Shown here piece by piece: positions 47,101 to 55,065 of a DNA stretch of 55,065 bases. A program made the position numbers and the translations under genes. The notes under the pieces were generated by a model. It searched no databases. It was not told where the DNA came from and saw nothing but the letters and a program-made list of their open reading frames with translations. This DNA is from Vicinamibacterales bacterium (lineage in GTDB: Bacteria > Acidobacteriota > Vicinamibacteria > Vicinamibacterales > CAVVIG01). Every line of letters starts with the position of its first letter. Positions within the stretch are counted from its first letter, which is position 1. The stretch covers positions 1 through 55,065 of the forward strand of contig JBEBGB010000001.1 of assembly GCA_040081675.1 (NCBI GenBank), read 5' to 3'.

Positions 47101-48234
47101 TCAGTGCGTGTCAGCAGCGCTGCGCCAGAGCCACCGACGAGCGCCACGAAGAGCCCGCAGCACGTACATCGCCGCCAATGGCATGCGGCTCGACGGCGCA
47201 TAGACACTGCGCATGTAGTCGCGGCTCGGAAACAGATGCTCGCGCATCAACTGCGACCGCTCGGACCAGGTTGTGAGCACCCGCAGATCGTCGAGAACGA
47301 CCCTGGCCTGTGCGCGAGGGCGAAGATACTCGGCCGTACGCTCAGGTGCGTGGCTGACCAGTCGAGCGTCGCTGAGCACCCACGCGGGAACGTGCGTGTG
47401 GAGCCACCGGGCTGCCTGCGAAAGACCTTCTCGACACACCGCGGCGACACCACGCTCGGCGATGATCGTCAGAAAACCGTCCCACTCCCGAGCCTCGAGC
47501 CGCGAGGCGATGAGGTGGATGTCGTACGTCCACTTCAACTTGTGAGGTTCGTCGTTGTGGTGAGCCACTTGATGCATGCAGGCGATGAGCAGCGCGTGCA
47601 CATTCGATGGTCCACGGGCACGCGGCCCCAGCGATGGGATCGGCTGCGAGGCCGCGAGCAGCTCATCGAAGCGCAGGACGTGCGCGAAGACCTGCGGGCT
47701 CGCAAGCCGCCAGTGCAGGTCCACGAGGTGAACATCAGCGCCGTGCCGCGTCAGGGCATGGAGTTGCTGGGTCGCCGTCAGCTCGCCGGACGGCTTTGCA
47801 TCGGGGACATAGCCGAGGCCGCCCAGCACGCGGGTTGCGCTATCCCGCTGTGTGCGCCCAACGAGCAGGTCCGAATCGATCCGCGCGCGAAGGTCAGGTC
47901 TCGAGTAATGGCTGTATGCCAGATGACTGCCCTTGATGACCAGCACCTGAACGCCGTCGGCGTCCAGTTCGTTCAGCAACCGGCGCAGTTCAATCTCCGC
48001 AGCCAGGTCGGATGCCGCGAGTTTCTGCGACGCTTCTCGAAACACCCTTCGAAGCGTGTCGGCCAACTGGTCGCCTGCGGCGAGACGATCGGCCACGAGC
48101 GCCACGATATCGTGCTCTCGGGCGGCGCTCAGTAAGAGCTCCGCGTCAGACGTGGTCGATGAGCCCGCATCGCACTCCTCGCCTCTCAGCATCGAAGCCA
48201 GGCACTCATCCAGGCCGATAGATCCCTTCTGCAT
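47101..48234 (-). CDS. Nucleotidyltransferase (PF14907-like, lasso-cluster-associated)
   Basis: Trimmed to ATG 48234, 10 nt after the ABC stop. Pol-beta-type NTase motif 'VIKGSHLAYSHYSRPDLRARIDSDLLV', and 'KWTYDIHLI' further on. Confidence 0.7.
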   Translation of the reverse strand: MQKGSIGLDECLASMLRGEECDAGSSTTSDAELLLSAAREHDIVALVADRLAAGDQLADTLRRVFREASQKLAASDLAAEIELRRLLNELDADGVQVLVIKGSHLAYSHYSRPDLRARIDSDLLVGRTQRDSATRVLGGLGYVPDAKPSGELTATQQLHALTRHGADVHLVDLHWRLASPQVFAHVLRFDELLAASQPIPSLGPRARGPSNVHALLIACMHQVAHHNDEPHKLKWTYDIHLIASRLEAREWDGFLTIIAERGVAAVCREGLSQAARWLHTHVPAWVLSDARLVSHAPERTAEYLRPRAQARVVLDDLRVLTTWSERSQLMREHLFPSRDYMRSVYAPSSRMPLAAMYVLRALRGARRWLWRSAADTH

Positions 48235-48244
48235 GGTCAGCGGC

Positions 48245-50062
48245 TCACGCAGCACCGATCTCGACGCCCTGGGCGTCAGAGAGCGCGCGGAAGCGACTGG
48301 TCGGGTTGCCGAGCAGCGACGACCATGTGCCACACTCCCGCACGCGGCCGCCTTCGATCACGTAGATTTGATCGGCGTTTCTGATGGTGGACAACCGATG
48401 CGTGATGACGACGATCGTGATCTGCTCGTGGAGACCGTCGATCGCCGCCTGAATTCGCTGCTCGTTCTCGGAGTCGAGCGCACTGGTCGCTTCATCCAGA
48501 ATCAGAACCTGGGGCTGTCGTAACAGGGCTCTCGCAAGTGAGAGGCGCTGGCGTTCCCCGCCGGAAACCAGCACACCGCGATCGCCGATCACCGTGTCGA
48601 GCCCAGCCGGAAGGGCACGGACAAAGTCGGCAGCTGCGGACCGCTCCAGGGACTGCCAGATGGCTTCGTCGGTGGCCGAGGGACACGCCCACAACAGGTT
48701 TGCGCGAATGGTGTCGTGAAACAGCAACGTCTCCTGCGCGACGTATCCGATCCTCGCGCGCCACGACTGCAGCCGCTCCGGCGTGAGTGGCATCTCGTCG
48801 ACGAGCACGGCGCCGTGTGCAGGTGTGACGAGGCCCATCATCAGGTCGGCGATCGTGCTCTTGCCTGCGCCAGATGGTCCCACGATCGCGGTGGTCGTAT
48901 GTACGGGCACATGCAGCGTGACATCCTCCAGCGCCGGCCGCCCTGGCGTCTCCAGGTAGCTGAATGTCACATGGCGGCAGTCGAGCGACGCTTCGAACGT
49001 GACGCGGTCGTGCCGGGTTGGCTCGGGCTCCGCCGCAGCGAGGCACTGCGCCTCGGCTTCGACGACGCTCTCGAAGGCGGGCAACTCCACCAGCAACACC
49101 TGCGCCCTCTCATAGAGCGAAGTCACACGTGGCACAAGCCGCGCGAACAGGAAGATGAGCAGCAGCAGCGAGGCTGCGGATATCTGCATGACCGCTTGCG
49201 CGACGTACACGATCGCGGCGAGCAGCACCGCCGAGCCAATCGTCAGCCACTGACGGGCGCGGACGGACGCCGACATCGCACTGAGGCTTGCCTGGCCCAC
49301 CTCCGACGATAGCAGGCCGAAACGTTCCGCAAGACGCGACCCCGCGCCGTATCCCTTGGCCATCTTCATGCCCGCCAGATGGTCGAACGTCGCGCTGTGC
49401 AGACGCGTGGACGCGTCGGTGTACCGTTCGCCTGCAGCGTGTGCCCTCGCGAGTTGCCCTCGCATGGCGAGCGCCAGCACGGCTCCGCAGGTCACCACGA
49501 ACGTGGTCATCACCGGCGAAACCCGGAATGCGAGCACCACGTACACGAGCGCAATCACGCCCGTCACGAACAGGTCCATCAGGTAGTACGCAGCCGACGC
49601 GACACGATCGATCCGTTCGGTCAGCAACTGACCGAAGGTCGATGTTCGAGTTCGCGAGAAGTACACCCACGTGGTGCCCGCGATCGCGCGATGCAGTCGC
49701 CTTCGCAACGTGTCGACGATCTGCTCGCGGAGCCGCGTCTGCACGGTCGTTTGCTGCCGTTGAAGCAGGCTCTGGACGGTAACGATCGTGACGTACAGCG
49801 CCAGAACGGCGGGCAGCGTCGGAACCAGGCCGACCAGGGCGAATCCGCTCCTGAACACGCCCATGACGCGACCGAGAGCGCCCTGCCCCGCGTCGACTCC
49901 GACCAGTTGCAGAAGCGGGATGAGCACCAGAAGCCCGATTCCTTCCGCCAGACCAACGGCGAAGGTCAGGAGCATGGTGAGTGCCGCGCGGCGCGGCGCG
50001 ACCGCGATGATCGCCGTCACGAACTGCCTCAACGCGCGGAGAGTTGGAGAGAGGGTGCTCAC
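48245..50062 (-). CDS. ABC exporter, fused permease + ATPase (McjD-type lasso peptide export/immunity)
   Basis: 605 aa with a 6-TM domain, then Walker A 'GPSGAGKST', signature 'VSGGERQRLSLARA' and Walker B 'LILDEATSALD'. Starts 6 nt after the B2 stop. Confidence 0.9.
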   Translation of the reverse strand: MSTLSPTLRALRQFVTAIIAVAPRRAALTMLLTFAVGLAEGIGLLVLIPLLQLVGVDAGQGALGRVMGVFRSGFALVGLVPTLPAVLALYVTIVTVQSLLQRQQTTVQTRLREQIVDTLRRRLHRAIAGTTWVYFSRTRTSTFGQLLTERIDRVASAAYYLMDLFVTGVIALVYVVLAFRVSPVMTTFVVTCGAVLALAMRGQLARAHAAGERYTDASTRLHSATFDHLAGMKMAKGYGAGSRLAERFGLLSSEVGQASLSAMSASVRARQWLTIGSAVLLAAIVYVAQAVMQISAASLLLLIFLFARLVPRVTSLYERAQVLLVELPAFESVVEAEAQCLAAAEPEPTRHDRVTFEASLDCRHVTFSYLETPGRPALEDVTLHVPVHTTTAIVGPSGAGKSTIADLMMGLVTPAHGAVLVDEMPLTPERLQSWRARIGYVAQETLLFHDTIRANLLWACPSATDEAIWQSLERSAAADFVRALPAGLDTVIGDRGVLVSGGERQRLSLARALLRQPQVLILDEATSALDSENEQRIQAAIDGLHEQITIVVITHRLSTIRNADQIYVIEGGRVRECGTWSSLLGNPTSRFRALSDAQGVEIGAA

Positions 50063-50068
50063 ACCCCG

Positions 50069-50581
50069 CTAGCTCGCTGGAATGCTGTGCGGGGCGCTCG
50101 GCGGCGGCTCGGCGTCCAGGTGTCCGTCAGGACCAAAGGCGAACGCAGGGGTGTAGGACGCAATCGCGGATTGCGGTTCGCCAACCAACTGCCCGTCGAC
50201 CAGCACCCAGGCGTGACCGATCACACCGGCGGGGTCACGACCGACGCCGATGACCAACGTCGGATGCGCGCCCGCCGCGCACAGGTAGCGATACGCGATG
50301 AGGCTGCGTTCGAGACAATTGGCGCCCCGGTTCCACCGCGTGAGACGGGCGCCCCACTGCGCGAACGTGATGATGCGGCGCTCGCGATCGGCGTCTCGAG
50401 TCGCGCGCCGCTGCGGCTGATGCATGACCGCGGCGAGTGACTTCACCGAGACAACGCGTTTCAGCGCTGGAAGGACAAGAGCCCACGCCAATGCCTTGGT
50501 CACCAGGATCGCGTCGGAGACGGTGCGCACTTCCTGACCAAGACGACGAAGCACGTAACCACGCGGTGCGGCTGGAGACAT
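50069..50581 (-). CDS. Lasso peptide leader peptidase B2 (transglutaminase-fold Cys protease)
   Basis: Trimmed to ATG 50581, which overlaps the kinase stop by 1 nt (TGATG). 'GANCLERSLIAYRYL' (catalytic Cys) and 'GVIGHAWVLVDG' (catalytic His). Confidence 0.85.
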   Translation of the reverse strand: MSPAAPRGYVLRRLGQEVRTVSDAILVTKALAWALVLPALKRVVSVKSLAAVMHQPQRRATRDADRERRIITFAQWGARLTRWNRGANCLERSLIAYRYLCAAGAHPTLVIGVGRDPAGVIGHAWVLVDGQLVGEPQSAIASYTPAFAFGPDGHLDAEPPPSAPHSIPAS

Positions 50582-51510
50582 CACTGCACCGTGGGGGACG
50601 GCGTGGTCGGGCCGCGTCGGCGCGCCTGTCCGGTGAGACCGCCGTTCACGCCGCAATCGGCCGCGTGTGCTTCGAGTTGATCGAGGTTGGATGCCAGCGC
50701 GGGGAAGGTTCTGGGAAAGGTGAATCGAAAGGAAGGCACCGCGACGGCCAGCGACAGGTAATCGCGCATGAGCCGTTGGTTGTGTTCCGGCTCGTTGATG
50801 CTGAACGCATGTGCTTGCGCCAGCAAGAGCGGAAGGCTCTCGGCAGCTTTGAGTCGTGTGAACGACACCGGCGTCGACGGGTCAGGCGACGGGTCCAGGG
50901 CGTAGATCACCCTCAGGCGGAGACAGGTCGATGGCCAGTCGAACGGGATATCCGTTGCCTCCGACTTGCCAAAGTACTCTGCTGTCGCTTGACGCAGTCG
51001 TGCTTCGCTTCTGAGGGGGTACAGGTTGATGGGCGCGTCAGTGTCGTTGGGGTGACACGAAAAGGCCAGGGCGTCGTCGGAAACCGGCGTCCATCCAGGA
51101 CGCTGGGCCAGAGCGTACGCGGTTGTGGACTTGCTCGCACCGCTCGGACCAGTGAACGCGATCACGTCGCCAGTTGGCGACGCAACCGCGCTGGCATGCA
51201 GAACCTGTCGGTGCCAGATTGGATAAATGGCGGGGAGCCAGCTTCTCCACACGAGCTGTTCGAACTGGGATCGATCAACTCCGGTGCACGGGCACAGTAC
51301 CAGTTCCGGGCGGTCGGCGGTAAAGGTCGCGCCGCCGAATTCCGGCTGCCAAATCCAGTACTGTTGCCCGACCAGAAAGCAGTGCGTGGGTGCCTCACCG
51401 TCCACGGGCCAGGTGGCCAGATGCTGGCCAGCGGTACTGACACGAACGAATACGTCGTCCGTCTGGCTCACCACCTGCCAACGCAGGACCGGGACGACCC
51501 ACGATGACAC
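50581..51510 (-). CDS. HPr-kinase-homologous peptide kinase (lasso tailoring)
   Basis: P-loop 'FTGPSGASKSTTAYALA' (compare HprK GxSGxGKS). Start set to GTG 51510, just downstream of the precursor stop. The tracked 373-aa ORF extends over the precursor gene in another frame. Start uncertain (+/- 60 nt). Confidence 0.7.
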   Translation of the reverse strand: MSSWVVPVLRWQVVSQTDDVFVRVSTAGQHLATWPVDGEAPTHCFLVGQQYWIWQPEFGGATFTADRPELVLCPCTGVDRSQFEQLVWRSWLPAIYPIWHRQVLHASAVASPTGDVIAFTGPSGASKSTTAYALAQRPGWTPVSDDALAFSCHPNDTDAPINLYPLRSEARLRQATAEYFGKSEATDIPFDWPSTCLRLRVIYALDPSPDPSTPVSFTRLKAAESLPLLLAQAHAFSINEPEHNQRLMRDYLSLAVAVPSFRFTFPRTFPALASNLDQLEAHAADCGVNGGLTGQARRRGPTTPSPTVQ

Positions 51511-51521
51511 GGTCGTAACGC

Positions 51522-51683
51522 CTAGTCGCCCATCATCTGTTCGAGGGTGACGCTGCCGTTGTCCATGTTGATCATCGTCTTCGAGCCTGCCCGGACGAAG
51601 TCGCGCAGGTTGCCGAGTTCTTGAACTGACGGCGAATGCCAGACCGGCTTGAGGCGGGCTTCGTTGCTCTTGGGTGCTGCCAT
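51522..51683 (-). CDS. Lasso peptide precursor (53 aa): MAAPKSNEARLKPVWHSPSVQELGNLRDFVRAGSKTMINMDNGSVTLEQMMGD
   Basis: Not in the ORF track (below its size cut-off). ATG 51683 is preceded by GGGAG (51691-51695) with a 7-nt spacer, and TAG ends at 51522. The leader has W-x2-P-x-V-x3-G spacing like the lasso RRE-recognition motif. The C-terminal part has a small residue followed by Asp 8-10 residues later. It sits between the cyclase and kinase genes. Confidence 0.7.
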   Translation of the reverse strand: MAAPKSNEARLKPVWHSPSVQELGNLRDFVRAGSKTMINMDNGSVTLEQMMGD

Positions 51684-51699
51684 GAAGAAACTCCCTGAA

Positions 51700-51731
51700 C
51701 ACCGCTAACGCGGTGGTTTGTCGGTATTCTA
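51700..51731 (-). promoter_or_regulatory. Possible precursor-specific -10 box (TAGAAT) and 5'-UTR hairpin
   Basis: Minus-strand TAGAAT at 51731-51726, with no convincing -35. The CACCGC-GTTA-GCGGTG hairpin at 51715-51700 would sit at the 5' end of such a transcript, just upstream of the SD. Confidence 0.25.
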
Positions 51732-51814: not shown

Positions 51815-53701
51815 TCAGCGCCCCGTGTGCACTGACGTCCAGAGTTCTGCGCTCATGAGCGCGAACATGCGCACCAATGTGCTGCTGTCCGGGTCCGCTG
51901 ACCCGGCGTCTTCCCGTAAGACCCGCGGGTCTACCAGGTTCAACGCCGACAACGTCTCGAACTGGTGCATCCGCCAGGCGCTCGTCACTCCGTCGCGAAG
52001 AACGCGAAACACCAGATCCTGGCCTTGTTTCGGATATTCCTTTCGTTGCCTGCCGAATCCGAGACCGGGGAGGTGTCGCTCCACGACCGGTCGAAGCAGG
52101 CCCTTGTACTTGTTGCCATGGAGGAGCACTTGCGGCGGAATTCGCCGGAGGAGCTGTACCAACGAGGCGTCGTGGTAGGGAACGAGCAACCGCAGCCCGC
52201 ACAGCCGTTCGACGTGAAATGTCGTCTCGAACTCGTGGTGGACGTACTGGTTGTCATCCGAAAGCGATTGCCGCAGATAGCTTCTCGGAATCCTGCCGGC
52301 GCTGCTTAGTGCCGGCGTTCGTCGGTTCGCGAGATGCTCGATGAGCTCATCTCGCAAGGCGAGGTCTGGGCACAGCCACGCAGGGATTGCGCCGTCCGCA
52401 CGGCTCCGGTGATAGCGTGCCTTGGCGCGTGGAAGCGTCAGCATCGCGAACGAATCGACAAAGGGCCGCACCGCGCCGTGCCAGAGCAGGTGCCTCGCCG
52501 CGCTCCGGTAGGACGCTCCGCCTGTCCCGATCTCCGAGTGAATGAAGCCGCGGAGGTCGCTCAGGCGAAGTCGGCGCAGGAGATCGGCGGCATGAGCGTC
52601 TGGGACAGACAGCCAGTTGTCGGCGCCGGAGCCAGTCAGCAGCGTGTGCAGGTTGCTGTGCACCGCTTCGCGGAAAAAGCCCATGGCGGAGCCGACCCAG
52701 TAGATCCGCGACGGTCCCGGCAACTGCGGCGTCACTTCGAGAGAAAGCTCGACTTCGTTCCGCTCGTGCGTCCACTCCGACTTGCGCCTGACCACGTGCG
52801 GCATGCCCAGCGCGCCGGCCGACTGCGCCTGCTGATCCCACTCATGGAGCAGTTCGTCGGTCTGGCCCGAAAGCGCCACAAGCGGCGGCCGCGCGTGATC
52901 GCGACAGTATTTTGTCGCGAGCGCCGCCAGAGTGACCGAATCGACGCCGCCACTGAGCATGAGGCCGTCTGGCGCAAGCCGCATGCAGCGCGAAACCGCC
53001 CGATAGAGGGCAGGCTCGAATGCGTCCAGAGCCTCGCGTTCGCTGAGGCAGTCGGCGTCGGTTTCGGGCACCGCATCCCAGTACTTGCGTTCGCGCGTGG
53101 TACGGTCCGCAGCAACCTCGAGGTAGTGACCCGGTCGCAGGCGCTTGATGTCTGCAAAGAAGGTCTCGCCGGCGCCGGGCCAGAGCGTCATCGCCGCCAG
53201 AGCCAGTGACAGCCTGTTCGGCGTGTTGGGTACGTCGCCGCTCGCTGCCAGGGTCAGCACGTTCGCGCCGAACCAGATCGCTCGCGGGCCGGCTGAATAG
53301 AACAAGGGATGCCGACCCATGGGATCGCGACCGAGGAACAAGCGATGCGTGTCGGCGTCAGCGATCGCGACGAGATACGCTCCCTCGAGCCTGGACAGGC
53401 ACTCCATGCCCCACGCCTGATACGCCGACGCGACGATGTGCGCGCACGACGCTGCCCCGGGCAGACGCAGTTGCTCGCACAACTCGTCCCGATCGAACAG
53501 GTACCCGTCGAACAGCACGGTGCTCGGGCGTCCCGGCGCGCCGTAGGTCCAGAACGTCGCTCCAGTGTCTGCACGCTGCACATCGAACGGGCCGACGCTG
53601 CTCAGTCCATCTCGGGGCGGCCGGGCCGACCGCTGGTCGTATGCAAAGGCGGCGACCCACAGGGGCAGGTCGTACCGGGTGTCGATACTGGCTGTACTCA
53701 T
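51815..53701 (-). CDS. Lasso cyclase C (asparagine-synthetase B homologue)
   Basis: 628 aa. PP-loop 'MLSGGVDS' is present. The N-terminus 'MSTASIDTRYD' lacks the Cys2 nucleophile of glutamine-hydrolysing AsnB. The start overlaps the PqqD stop (ATGA). Confidence 0.9.
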   Translation of the reverse strand: MSTASIDTRYDLPLWVAAFAYDQRSARPPRDGLSSVGPFDVQRADTGATFWTYGAPGRPSTVLFDGYLFDRDELCEQLRLPGAASCAHIVASAYQAWGMECLSRLEGAYLVAIADADTHRLFLGRDPMGRHPLFYSAGPRAIWFGANVLTLAASGDVPNTPNRLSLALAAMTLWPGAGETFFADIKRLRPGHYLEVAADRTTRERKYWDAVPETDADCLSEREALDAFEPALYRAVSRCMRLAPDGLMLSGGVDSVTLAALATKYCRDHARPPLVALSGQTDELLHEWDQQAQSAGALGMPHVVRRKSEWTHERNEVELSLEVTPQLPGPSRIYWVGSAMGFFREAVHSNLHTLLTGSGADNWLSVPDAHAADLLRRLRLSDLRGFIHSEIGTGGASYRSAARHLLWHGAVRPFVDSFAMLTLPRAKARYHRSRADGAIPAWLCPDLALRDELIEHLANRRTPALSSAGRIPRSYLRQSLSDDNQYVHHEFETTFHVERLCGLRLLVPYHDASLVQLLRRIPPQVLLHGNKYKGLLRPVVERHLPGLGFGRQRKEYPKQGQDLVFRVLRDGVTSAWRMHQFETLSALNLVDPRVLREDAGSADPDSSTLVRMFALMSAELWTSVHTGR

Positions 53702-54006
53702 GGCGAGGGGCCTTCGTGGGCCAGTTCAATCAGCCCCTTTGTTCTGAAGTCCTCGATGAGTCTATGCACTTCGCGCGACACGAGGTCGGTCGGTTCGAGA
53801 TACTCGGCTGCCAGGCGCTCGACGATCTCGTTCACGGTAAGTCCGTCAGCGATCAGCAGTGCGACGCGCGCGGCGGTTTCGTTGAGCGAGTAGGCCGCTT
53901 CAGCGGTCAGCTTCAGAGCGAGAGCCTCGTTGCCCACGTGCCGAATGACGACATCTGGCGCGAACCGAACCGCGGACACCGCATCGGGGAATGGCTGATC
54001 CCCCAT
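53698..54006 (-). CDS. PqqD-family RiPP recognition element (lasso B1)
   Basis: Trimmed to ATG 54006 (TGATG overlap with the methyltransferase stop). 102 aa. 'VVIRHVGNEALALKLTAEAAYSLNETAARVALLIADGLTVNEIVERLAAEY...VHRLIEDFRTKGLI' is the PqqD pattern. Confidence 0.85.
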   Translation of the reverse strand: MGDQPFPDAVSAVRFAPDVVIRHVGNEALALKLTAEAAYSLNETAARVALLIADGLTVNEIVERLAAEYLEPTDLVSREVHRLIEDFRTKGLIELAHEGPSP

Positions 54007-55065
54007 CAGGCAAAGCGCTTCACGATCGCGCGCACGAATCGTGAGGCATCCTCGTGGGTCTGGTACCTGGTCGGCCATTGCTCGAGAACGCCGGCCGCGA
54101 TCTCTCTGACCGGCGTCGTGCCGGCACACCGCGCAAGTACGAACTGCGCGGCCTCGCCTTCGACGTTCAAGGCGGGCAGGTAATCCATCGCCGCCTTCTT
54201 CAGAGTCGACGCCGTCATGGGGTCGGCGAGCATTGTCGAGTGGCGCTGCGAGCCCCCGTTCCACGACACGCGCCAGGTCCAATCACCGTAGGGCGCGCGG
54301 TCGAGGCGAAGTGCCACGCGATCGCCAACCGACAGGGCAATGGGCGGGTCGAGCGGGAGAAAGCCAGCCGACCAGTGCATGGGTTCCGCGTCTGGCGCCG
54401 TCGACACCCAGCGTTCGCCCAGCCGCATCGTGAACCAACCAGCGAAACCGTGACAGAGCTCCGCGGTGCGAACGGTGAATTCGGTCTCGGCGTGAATCGG
54501 TCCGTAACTGTCCGACAGAAAGTCGAGGCTGTGCACCTCGCGGGGTTCGGCGAGATAGACCACGTTCGTGCGATCCCACCGAAAGTGCACGGTGTTGGCC
54601 GCGTATGCGCGAGCGGGCTCGAGCGTCACGCCGTGTTGAGGCTCGCTCCAACTGGAGATCTCGCGGGCGTGCAGACGCGGAGCGCTCACCGGGGCGATGA
54701 CGATCGTGGCTCGGTCGGGAATCATCGCTCCGCCCGGTTTCATGAGCGTGTCGCGCGCGCGGAACAGAACGGGCAGCAGATCCTCGCTCATGAGGAGATT
54801 GCCGGTGAGTACGGACACGATGACGTCCACCGGTTCCGGAATCTGAACGTCGTCGAGACCACCGTGCAGGCACTGCACGACGTCCTGCAAATGGTTGGCG
54901 CGTGCGGCTTCGGACGCAACCGACACCACCTCTTCGGGTTCAACGAGGTAGACGCGCTTCGCTCCAAGTCTGGCCGCCATCAGGCCATGGATGCCGAGAC
55001 CTGCGCCGAGGTCGAGCACGACGCTCGACGGAGTGATCACCCGCTCGAGCGCGTCGGCATACGCA
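54006..55065 (-). CDS. PRMT-fold (protein arginine methyltransferase-like) SAM methyltransferase with C-terminal PqqD/RRE-like extension; 5' end outside window
   Basis: The reading frame is open to the window edge ('AYADALERVITPSSVVLDLGAGLGIHGLMAARLGAKRVYLVE' = SAM motif I/post-I). 'SVLTGNLLMSEDLL' resembles the double-E loop, and 'HGFAGWFTMRL...PMHWSAGFLPL' resembles the PRMT beta-barrel/THW loop. The last ~55-75 aa resemble the helical half of PqqD. Confidence 0.7.
   Translation of the reverse strand, partial: AYADALERVITPSSVVLDLGAGLGIHGLMAARLGAKRVYLVEPEEVVSVASEAARANHLQDVVQCLHGGLDDVQIPEPVDVIVSVLTGNLLMSEDLLPVLFRARDTLMKPGGAMIPDRATIVIAPVSAPRLHAREISSWSEPQHGVTLEPARAYAANTVHFRWDRTNVVYLAEPREVHSLDFLSDSYGPIHAETEFTVRTAELCHGFAGWFTMRLGERWVSTAPDAEPMHWSAGFLPLDPPIALSVGDRVALRLDRAPYGDWTWRVSWNGGSQRHSTMLADPMTASTLKKAAMDYLPALNVEGEAAQFVLARCAGTTPVREIAAGVLEQWPTRYQTHEDASRFVRAIVKRFA

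Follow-up and report, generated by a model that had tools for sequence, protein, structure and literature searches.

A 55,065-nucleotide stretch of DNA (the window) from a Vicinamibacterales bacterium of the phylum Acidobacteriota (assembly GCA_040081675.1, contig JBEBGB010000001.1, positions 1 to 55,065) contains a small gene that appears to encode a lasso peptide precursor, the leader and predicted ring of which seem to be out of register. The precursor gene (A, 51522..51683, minus strand) was delimited from the list of open reading frames (ORFs) and the sequence. It runs from an ATG at 51683-51681 to a TAG at 51524-51522 and encodes 53 residues. A Shine-Dalgarno sequence GGGAG (51691..51695), read directly on the minus strand, lies 7 nt 5' of the ATG, and close homologues (89–94% identity) begin with the same N-terminus. 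A genome search showed the precursor to be present in single copy.

The precursor gene is one of eight co-directional, intact and tightly packed genes (in the order MT, B1, C, A, K, B2, D, and N), which were assigned with Pfam, NCBIfam and the ORF list and all lie on the minus strand. MT (54006..55065), the 5' end of which lies beyond the window, is a methyltransferase of PRMT fold matching Pfam PRMT_C, PrmA and Methyltransf_25. B1 is a PqqD-type recognition element for peptides made on the ribosome and modified after translation (RiPPs), contained in a maximal ORF at 53698..54282. Its residues 128–185 match Pfam PqqD above the cut-off (3.8e-11), and the true start is probably further downstream than that of the maximal ORF. 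The Asn-synthase-like lasso cyclase C (51815..53701) matches Pfam Asn_synthase (8.7e-19) and GATase_7; it also matches the NCBIfam lasso cyclase models, but below their cut-offs.

On the other side of the precursor lies K (50581..51510), an HPr-kinase-like peptide kinase of the Bsf type presented below, recognized by a weak AAA_33 match and a motif. Its real start is probably a GTG near 51510. The longest ORF in the kinase frame (50581-51702, 373 aa) overlaps the precursor gene completely, on the same strand but in a different frame, and an ORF caller relying on the longest frame would conceal the precursor under it. The leader peptidase B2 (50069..50656), a transglutaminase-like cysteine protease, scores 57.8 bits with NCBIfam NF033537 (lasso_biosyn_B2, cut-off 33) and matches Pfam Transglut_core3; its translation contains the motifs NCLERS and GHAWV. 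The cluster is completed by an ABC exporter D (48245..50062; Pfam ABC_tran and ABC_membrane, 54–61% identity in related loci) and by a nucleotidyltransferase N of the NTP_transf_5 family (47101..48333; Pfam PF14907, 1.9e-39). A precursor beside an Asn-synthase-like cyclase, a PqqD-type recognition element and a transglutaminase-like peptidase is the arrangement of a lasso cluster with a split B protein, and the additional presence of both a Bsf-like kinase and a nucleotidyltransferase is that of a Bsf-type cluster.

The precursor can be divided into five segments. The recognition motif of the leader, expected as Y-x2-P-x-L-x3-G, takes the form W15-x2-P18-x-V20-x2-L23-G24 (51612..51641) proper to the family, with Trp in place of Tyr and Val or Leu in the Leu slot. 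It is followed by a conserved leader segment N25-L-R-D-F-V30-R31 (51591..51611), in which V30 and R31 occupy the canonical −2 and −1 slots, and by a spacer A32-G33 (51585..51590), the second residue of which may already be ring residue 1. The ring module S34-K35-T36-M-I-N-M-D41 (51561..51584) corresponds to the family consensus G-K-S-x4-D, with D41 as the predicted acceptor of the isopeptide bond. The translation ends with a loop and tail of 12 residues, N42 to D53 (51525..51560). The span from A32 to D53 corresponds exactly to positions 51525-51590. The C-terminus is G52-D53, without a C-terminal Ser, and the peptide contains no Cys.

The original prediction had placed W15, P18, V20 and G24 in the canonical register of lasso leaders, and had pointed out that cleavage would then fall between R31 and A32, with Val at −2. 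This arithmetic was confirmed, with G24 at −8. D41 is indeed core residue 10 in that register and the only acidic acceptor nearby, as E48 and D53, at positions 17 and 22, are too far off to serve. It is likewise correct that D41 becomes residue 9 of a core starting at G33 and residue 8 of a core starting at S34, and that characterized lasso macrolactams comprise 7, 8 or 9 residues, which is still the full range in a 2026 review (PMC13352647). The predicted bond therefore has its Asp at core position 7–9 with either of these two starts, and the recognition motif is displaced, W15 standing at −18 or −19 instead of −17 (at −22 in most of the family). Only a cut between R31 and A32 keeps the motif at −17, −14 and −12, and this cut leaves no acceptor at positions 7–9. 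The usual Thr at −2 is lacking with every plausible cleavage site, the residue there being V30, R31 or A32.

Homologues were collected at several levels. A word-indexed search returned three near-identical peptides (89–94% identity) and one distant one. A six-sequence HMMER profile gave 48 matches among 1.84 billion representative proteins, 44 of them small peptides, and a profile of 48 sequences run against a collection of 5.8 billion sequences gave 185 matches, the best 120 of which were used. Loci were sought by a metagenome scan with the 6-sequence alignment, and DNA context was obtained for 16 loci in metagenomes and three in genomes (of the latter, one was found by the genome scan and the phylum search alike). 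By profile search, the family is rare in its own phylum, being present in 4/401 Acidobacteriota genomes; with the window peptide alone as query, the same 401 genomes gave one real match (G208), the rest being noise at E > 1e-4.

Some matches were set aside. P0007 (1156 aa), P0037, P0043 and P0050 were excluded from the family as long proteins with repeated short partial matches, 18 stretches of P0007 matching profile positions 26–39; these stretches are probably repeats rich in Gly, Asn and Ser that have nothing to do with lasso peptides. A match in a Desulfuromonas metagenome-assembled genome (MAG; L033) lay inside a long unrelated frame and was spurious. P0033 was left out of the counts, as it has the leader and G-K-S and lacks an Asp at module position 8, with an abnormal end. 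Its G-K-S is followed by I-A-D-D-R-R-R-I-D-G-R-K, and the sequence could represent a copy that is frameshifted or decaying, or else a variant with a 6- or 7-residue ring.

In every related contig of sufficient length, the peptide sits between the cyclase (upstream) and the kinase (downstream). The order MT-B1-C-A-K is found in six loci (L032, L043–L045, L049 and L053), with methyltransferases 51–56% identical to that of the window. The kinase is followed by B2 and then D in L032 and L049. In L043–L045 and L053 the exporter gene lies upstream of MT or on the other side, and no B2 match was found after the kinase at the tblastn threshold used; the order of genes around the MT-B1-C-A-K core thus varies.

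Register counts were made over 163 distinct peptides, each anchored on the invariant leader Gly (G24 in the window). W, P and G are present in all 163, with a W-to-G spacing of 9 in 163/163, and an invariant motif with invariant spacing is not a chance resemblance to a leader. The slot equivalent to V30 is almost as uniform (Val 161, Ile 2), and the next one, equivalent to R31, is occupied by Arg (96), Gln (57) or Lys (7) in 160/163. The acceptor Asp always ends an eight-residue module x-K-[S/T]-x4-D. Lys and Asp are each found in 163/163, a count that is circular for these two residues, as the pattern search, matched by all family peptides but P0033, demanded K-x5-D. K35 and D41 were nonetheless found independently of this search, since W15, P18, G24, K35 and D41 are the only invariant columns in the MAFFT alignment of 48 homologues. 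Position 3 of the module is Ser or Thr in 160/163, and Gly follows the Asp in 155/163. Position 1 is Gly in 154/163, the remaining nine peptides having Asn (four), Thr (two), Ser (two) or Ile (one). The tail after the Asp measures 8–23 residues, with a median of 13.

What is not constant is the distance between leader and module. Counted from the anchor Gly, the module starts at an offset of 13 in 140 peptides and otherwise at 10 (five peptides, including that of the window), 11 (six), 12 (six), 14 (two), 15 (three) or 17 (one). Compared with the canonical offset of 8, the family carries 2–9 extra residues, most often 5, and the window peptide, with 2, is among the least shifted members. Even nearest relatives differ. 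P0002, 93% identical to the window peptide, reads ...FVRAGGNKSMVNMD... and has one residue more between FVR and Asp, so that the leader-to-Asp distance is not conserved at this level of similarity. A fixed module at a variable offset indicates that the ring-forming Asp belongs to a unit that floats relative to the leader. The spacer has features of its own. A Gly is conserved in it in 153/163, and Ala stands two residues before the module in 141/163, including peptides with offsets 13, 14, 15 and 17. This Ala tracks the ring across offsets and is thus registered to the ring and not to the leader, as expected of a cleavage determinant. The same organization is seen in two more distant Acidobacteriota clusters (L037, G002:C1, 9868-10020; L038, G131:C11, 3107-3283), the cyclases of which are about 30% identical. 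Their leaders end in ...V-G-K-V-T-D-I-V-Q or ...F-G-K-L-T-D-I-V-R, and their spacers, G-A or G-G-G, precede G-K-S-G-P-N-V-D or G-K-L-S-T-S-V-D. The spacer would therefore be older than its modal form x-G-x-A-x.

These counts bear directly on the ring size. A ten-membered ring, formed if B2 cuts between R31 and A32 and the α-amine of A32 is linked to D41, would suit the canonical register exactly, with W at −17, P at −14, V at −12 and G at −8. Ala is an accepted first residue, and Val at −2 is known in kinase-type clusters (PMC10368454). The same rule, however, applied to the family implies rings of 10–17 residues, namely 11 in P0002, 13 in 140/163 and up to 17, all outside the characterized range. 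Asp or Glu is found at core positions 7–9 in 0/163 peptides. The first residue would be highly variable, with Thr (43), Ser (35), Val (28), Ala (26) and Glu (18) followed by Asn, His, Met and others, and it is with the Lys/Gly module, not the leader, that the Asp keeps register. The unusual ring size that had been suggested for the window is contradicted by this comparison, and a ten-membered macrolactam is highly improbable. The other option then proposed, a displaced leader motif with the core at G33 or S34, is supported, although the displacement is mostly by 5 residues in the family and not by 1–2. The shifted register is best seen as a trait of the whole family, recurring across 163 homologous precursors, and not of the window peptide, an outcome that the original prediction had itself named as ordinary variation that would refute it.

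The closest characterized system, described by Duan et al. 2023 (PMC10368454), is the bsf cluster of Bradymonas sediminis FA350 with its genes A, B1, B2, C, D, K and N. BsfB1 and BsfB2 cut BsfA in vitro exactly before G1, after I-I-R, with Ile at −2. BsfK phosphorylates Ser3 of the core and also accepts Thr there, and the Ile at −2 affects phosphorylation and cleavage alike (PMC10368454). Translated from the published gene, BsfA has a leader ...Y-K-K-P-Q-L-...-I-I-R and a core G-T-S-G-N-E-V-D-G-S-...-G-D. An alignment of the family profile to BsfA with hhalign, which is weak (P = 0.009 over 37 columns), pairs Tyr with Trp, Pro with Pro, Leu with Leu, and I-I-R with F-V-R. Beyond this, BsfA shows a gap of five columns opposite the family x-G-x-A-x, after which G-T-S-G...D-G is paired with G-K-S-G...D-G.

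The reading favoured here, with a probability of about 0.7, is that the window encodes a genuine kinase-type (Bsf-like) lasso precursor, with an ordinary ring of 8 or 9 residues and a B2 cut right before the ring module. The apparent clash between leader and ring arises because the family has a spacer of variable length (2 residues here, 5 in most, up to 9) between Val-Arg and the ring. In the mechanism proposed, B1 would bind the W15-x2-P18-x-V20 motif, and the conserved segment E-L-G-N-L-R-D-F-V would serve the leader-dependent enzymes. The kinase would probably phosphorylate the Ser or Thr at module position 3, which is T36 in the window. B2 would read the local context Ala-x|Gly/Ser and cut at it, irrespective of how far away the bound motif lies. 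The cyclase C would then adenylate D41 and join it to the new N-terminus, for which the conserved Gly heading the module would be the obvious nucleophile, and the closed product would be carried out by D. The sequences show the constant register of the module, the variability of the spacer and the setting in the cluster; from these we infer the cleavage position, the phosphorylation of T36 and the threaded topology.

With an ordinary ring, the core of the window peptide may start at G33 or S34. A start at G33, giving a ring of nine residues up to D41, is tentatively placed first, at somewhat less than even odds. A start at S34, with a ring of eight, is possible and a little less likely. S34 retains the eight-residue register of the family, places A32 on the conserved Ala at −2 and T36 on the phosphorylation site equivalent to Ser3. 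Moreover, the window peptide and P0002 share the leader end ...FVRAG, and if both are cut at the same place, only a cut after G33 gives two rings in the range of 7–9, of 8 residues in the window and 9 in P0002. On the side of G33, the residue before Lys is Ser, Thr, Thr or Asn in the four closest relatives, more variation than is usual for residue 1 of a ring, and Gly directly precedes it in all four. No report of Thr as ring residue 1 was found in the literature. Gly at −1 is also enriched in peptides without Gly at module position 1 (6/9, vs 2/154 in those with Gly; Fisher 1e-7), and remains so when the close relatives of the window peptide are collapsed (3/6 vs 2/154, 3e-4), with the limits that related sequences are not independent and that the enrichment is confounded at offset 10, where this Gly is the conserved spacer Gly.

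Besides this confounding and the fact that the evidence on G33 and S34 points both ways, two observations weigh against the favoured reading as a whole. Val in the V30 slot is as conserved as the ring residues. As Ile at −2 matters for the cleavage of BsfA, an equally conserved Val makes a canonical cut after V-R possible in the family as well. The hhalign match that supports the comparison is weak.

The conserved dipeptide could be accommodated by processing in two steps, in which B2 cuts after V30-R31 and the spacer is trimmed to G33 or S34, by B2 again or by a housekeeping peptidase, before an 8- or 9-residue ring is closed. This scheme would explain the Val or Ile at canonical −2 in 163/163 and the Arg, Gln or Lys at −1 in 160/163, in a slot that corresponds by homology to the I-R|G at which BsfA was cut in experiments. 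Two successive proteolytic steps are used by several other RiPP classes (PMC10885120), and the kinase-type pseudomycoidin cyclase is reported to work without leader or peptidase (Zyubko 2019, as listed in a review). In lasso pathways, however, cleavage and cyclization appear to be coupled (PMC10885120). A Pfam scan found no further peptidase encoded among the eight cluster genes, and some spacers contain Pro-Pro or x-Pro (P0035, P0036 and P0041), which resist most aminopeptidases. For the Ala conserved two residues ahead of the ring, a role as determinant of direct cleavage is the simpler reading. Processing in two steps is considered unlikely.

A more radical possibility is that Val-Arg is the true B2 site and that the ring is non-classical, either closed between K35 and D41 with a free N-terminal stub, or a head-to-side-chain ring of 10–17 residues. 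Taken together, such outcomes are very unlikely; in either, a lasso cyclase would be making a macrolactam of new topology. For the first of them, B2 would cut after R31 and the ε-amine of K35 would be joined to D41 in a 7-residue lactam, the stub varying in length from peptide to peptide. It would render both the variable spacer and the variable position 1 harmless, and the Lys at module position 2 is more constant (163/163) than the Gly at position 1 (154/163). It would leave unexplained why position 1 is Gly in 94% of the peptides and −2 is Ala in 87%, and an invariant Lys can also be understood as a tailoring or target-binding residue. We know of no lasso cyclase that uses a Lys side chain as the ring nucleophile. 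According to PMC13178200, class V lasso peptides do have isopeptides with Lys side chains, though to the C-terminus. The homologous core of BsfA has Thr at position 2 and is cut directly before Gly1. A side-chain ring is the least credible of the alternatives.

Returning to the favoured reading, an ordinary ring need not be made in the organism itself, and the cluster may be silent or decaying. No mature Bsf lasso has been observed, the bsf cluster being silent in the native and five heterologous hosts (PMC10368454), and the rarity of the family in the phylum would fit such a fate. It is nevertheless improbable here, as the eight genes are intact, co-directional and tightly packed, the precursor is preceded by a good Shine-Dalgarno sequence, and the catalytic motifs of B2 are present. 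The peptide is also kept in other samples at 89–94% identity, with differences at a few positions only.

Two features of the family peptides are noted aside from the register. The invariant Lys at ring-module position 2 (K35, 51579-51581) co-occurs with the PRMT-fold methyltransferase, and the bsf cluster lacks both. As any Arg is found in only 22/163 family cores, this Lys, or the new N-terminus, is a better candidate than Arg for a methyl acceptor. The second feature is the presence of at least 2 Cys in the tail of 53/163 peptides, for example in ...S-M-C-G-G-E-A-M...G-T-C..., seen in L032, L047, L049, L050 and L051. It suggests a disulfide subgroup (class I/III/IV-like) within the family.

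The window peptide itself would thus be ordinary: a ring of 8 or 9 residues accounts for it, and a 10-membered macrolactam is not called for. The interest lies in the family, the distinct peptides of which number at least 163 and stem from soil-type metagenomes and Acidobacteriota MAGs. The invariant Val-Arg/Gln at the canonical slot, the Ala in place of Thr before the predicted cut, Lys2 and the floating ring module are computationally solid. These family-level features were not found described in the literature searched, and the leader string LGNLRDF gave no paper in a full-text search. Two rules of mining tools and mechanistic models would be broken with the predicted cut, the fixed distance from the motif bound by the recognition element to the scissile bond, and Thr at −2. 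The departure from mining rules noted in the original prediction is therefore a fair description, which extends from this peptide to the whole family. The family constitutes a natural test of how B1/B2 finds the cut site, by measuring out from the bound leader or by the sequence at the site itself.

Among known systems, that of Bsf is the most similar. Both clusters have split B1/B2, C, D, an HPr-kinase-like K and a nucleotidyltransferase N, and the P-loop regions of the kinases are nearly identical by eye (H-x-SAV...SGASKSTTAY...SDD in the window, HGSAV...SGAGKSTTAY...ADD in BsfK; PMC10368454 supplement). The precursors share an aromatic-x2-P-x-L leader motif and a β-branched hydrophobic residue plus Arg at canonical −2/−1 (I-R in BsfA, V-R in the window). 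BsfA and the family consensus have in common the core pattern G-x-S-G-x3-D-G-x-S. A C-terminal Ser is present in neither BsfA nor the window peptide, and in only 12/163 family peptides. The consensus G-K-S-x4-D-G fits G1, Ser3, D8 and Gly9 of Bsf; the window peptide reads S-K-T-x4-D-N, where T36 would be residue 3 solely in a core beginning with S34. The differences lie in the predicted cleavage site, ring position 2 and one enzyme. BsfB2 cuts right after I-R, in the canonical register, whereas V30-R31 is followed in the window by two residues before the module (A32-G33, or A32 alone before a ring starting at G33), and by five in most relatives. Ring position 2 is Thr in BsfA and an invariant Lys in the family, and bsf is without a PRMT-fold methyltransferase.

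The paeninodin/pseudomycoidin-type clusters of Bacillota resemble that of the window by their HPr-kinase homologue, split B1/B2 and, often, a nucleotidyltransferase. Their precursors follow the canonical register with Thr at −2 and are phosphorylated on a C-terminal Ser, whereas the window peptide lacks Thr at −2 and ends with Gly-Asp. Caulosegnins I–III of Caulobacter segnis provide the precedent of one enzyme set making both 8- and 9-residue rings (PMC13352647), as would be needed for the window peptide and P0002, but they are proteobacterial, with a fused B, Thr at −2, no kinase and no spacer. Metanodin, from a soil metagenome, has an Asn1 verified by tandem mass spectrometry (PMC12670498), comparable to the Asn at module position 1 of four family members. 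It demonstrates that a residue other than Gly, Ala, Ser or Cys can stand at ring position 1 and that mining tools miss such precursors (PMC12670498). Metanodin differs in keeping Thr at −2 and in its proteobacterial ABC-type cluster.

Residues other than Thr at −2 have precedents. Ala at −2 had been reported earlier, according to Duan et al., and Ile or Val recurs there in kinase-containing clusters of Acidobacteriaceae and Sphingomonadales (PMC10368454). The Acidobacteriaceae precursors concerned (Granulicella and others, ending in ...Y-x-A-D-E) were compared and belong to a different sequence family. The family of the window is thus most aptly regarded as a Bsf-like one in which a spacer separates the canonical −2/−1 dipeptide from the core. 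Val at canonical −2, already documented for kinase-containing clusters, is not novel; the spacer is.

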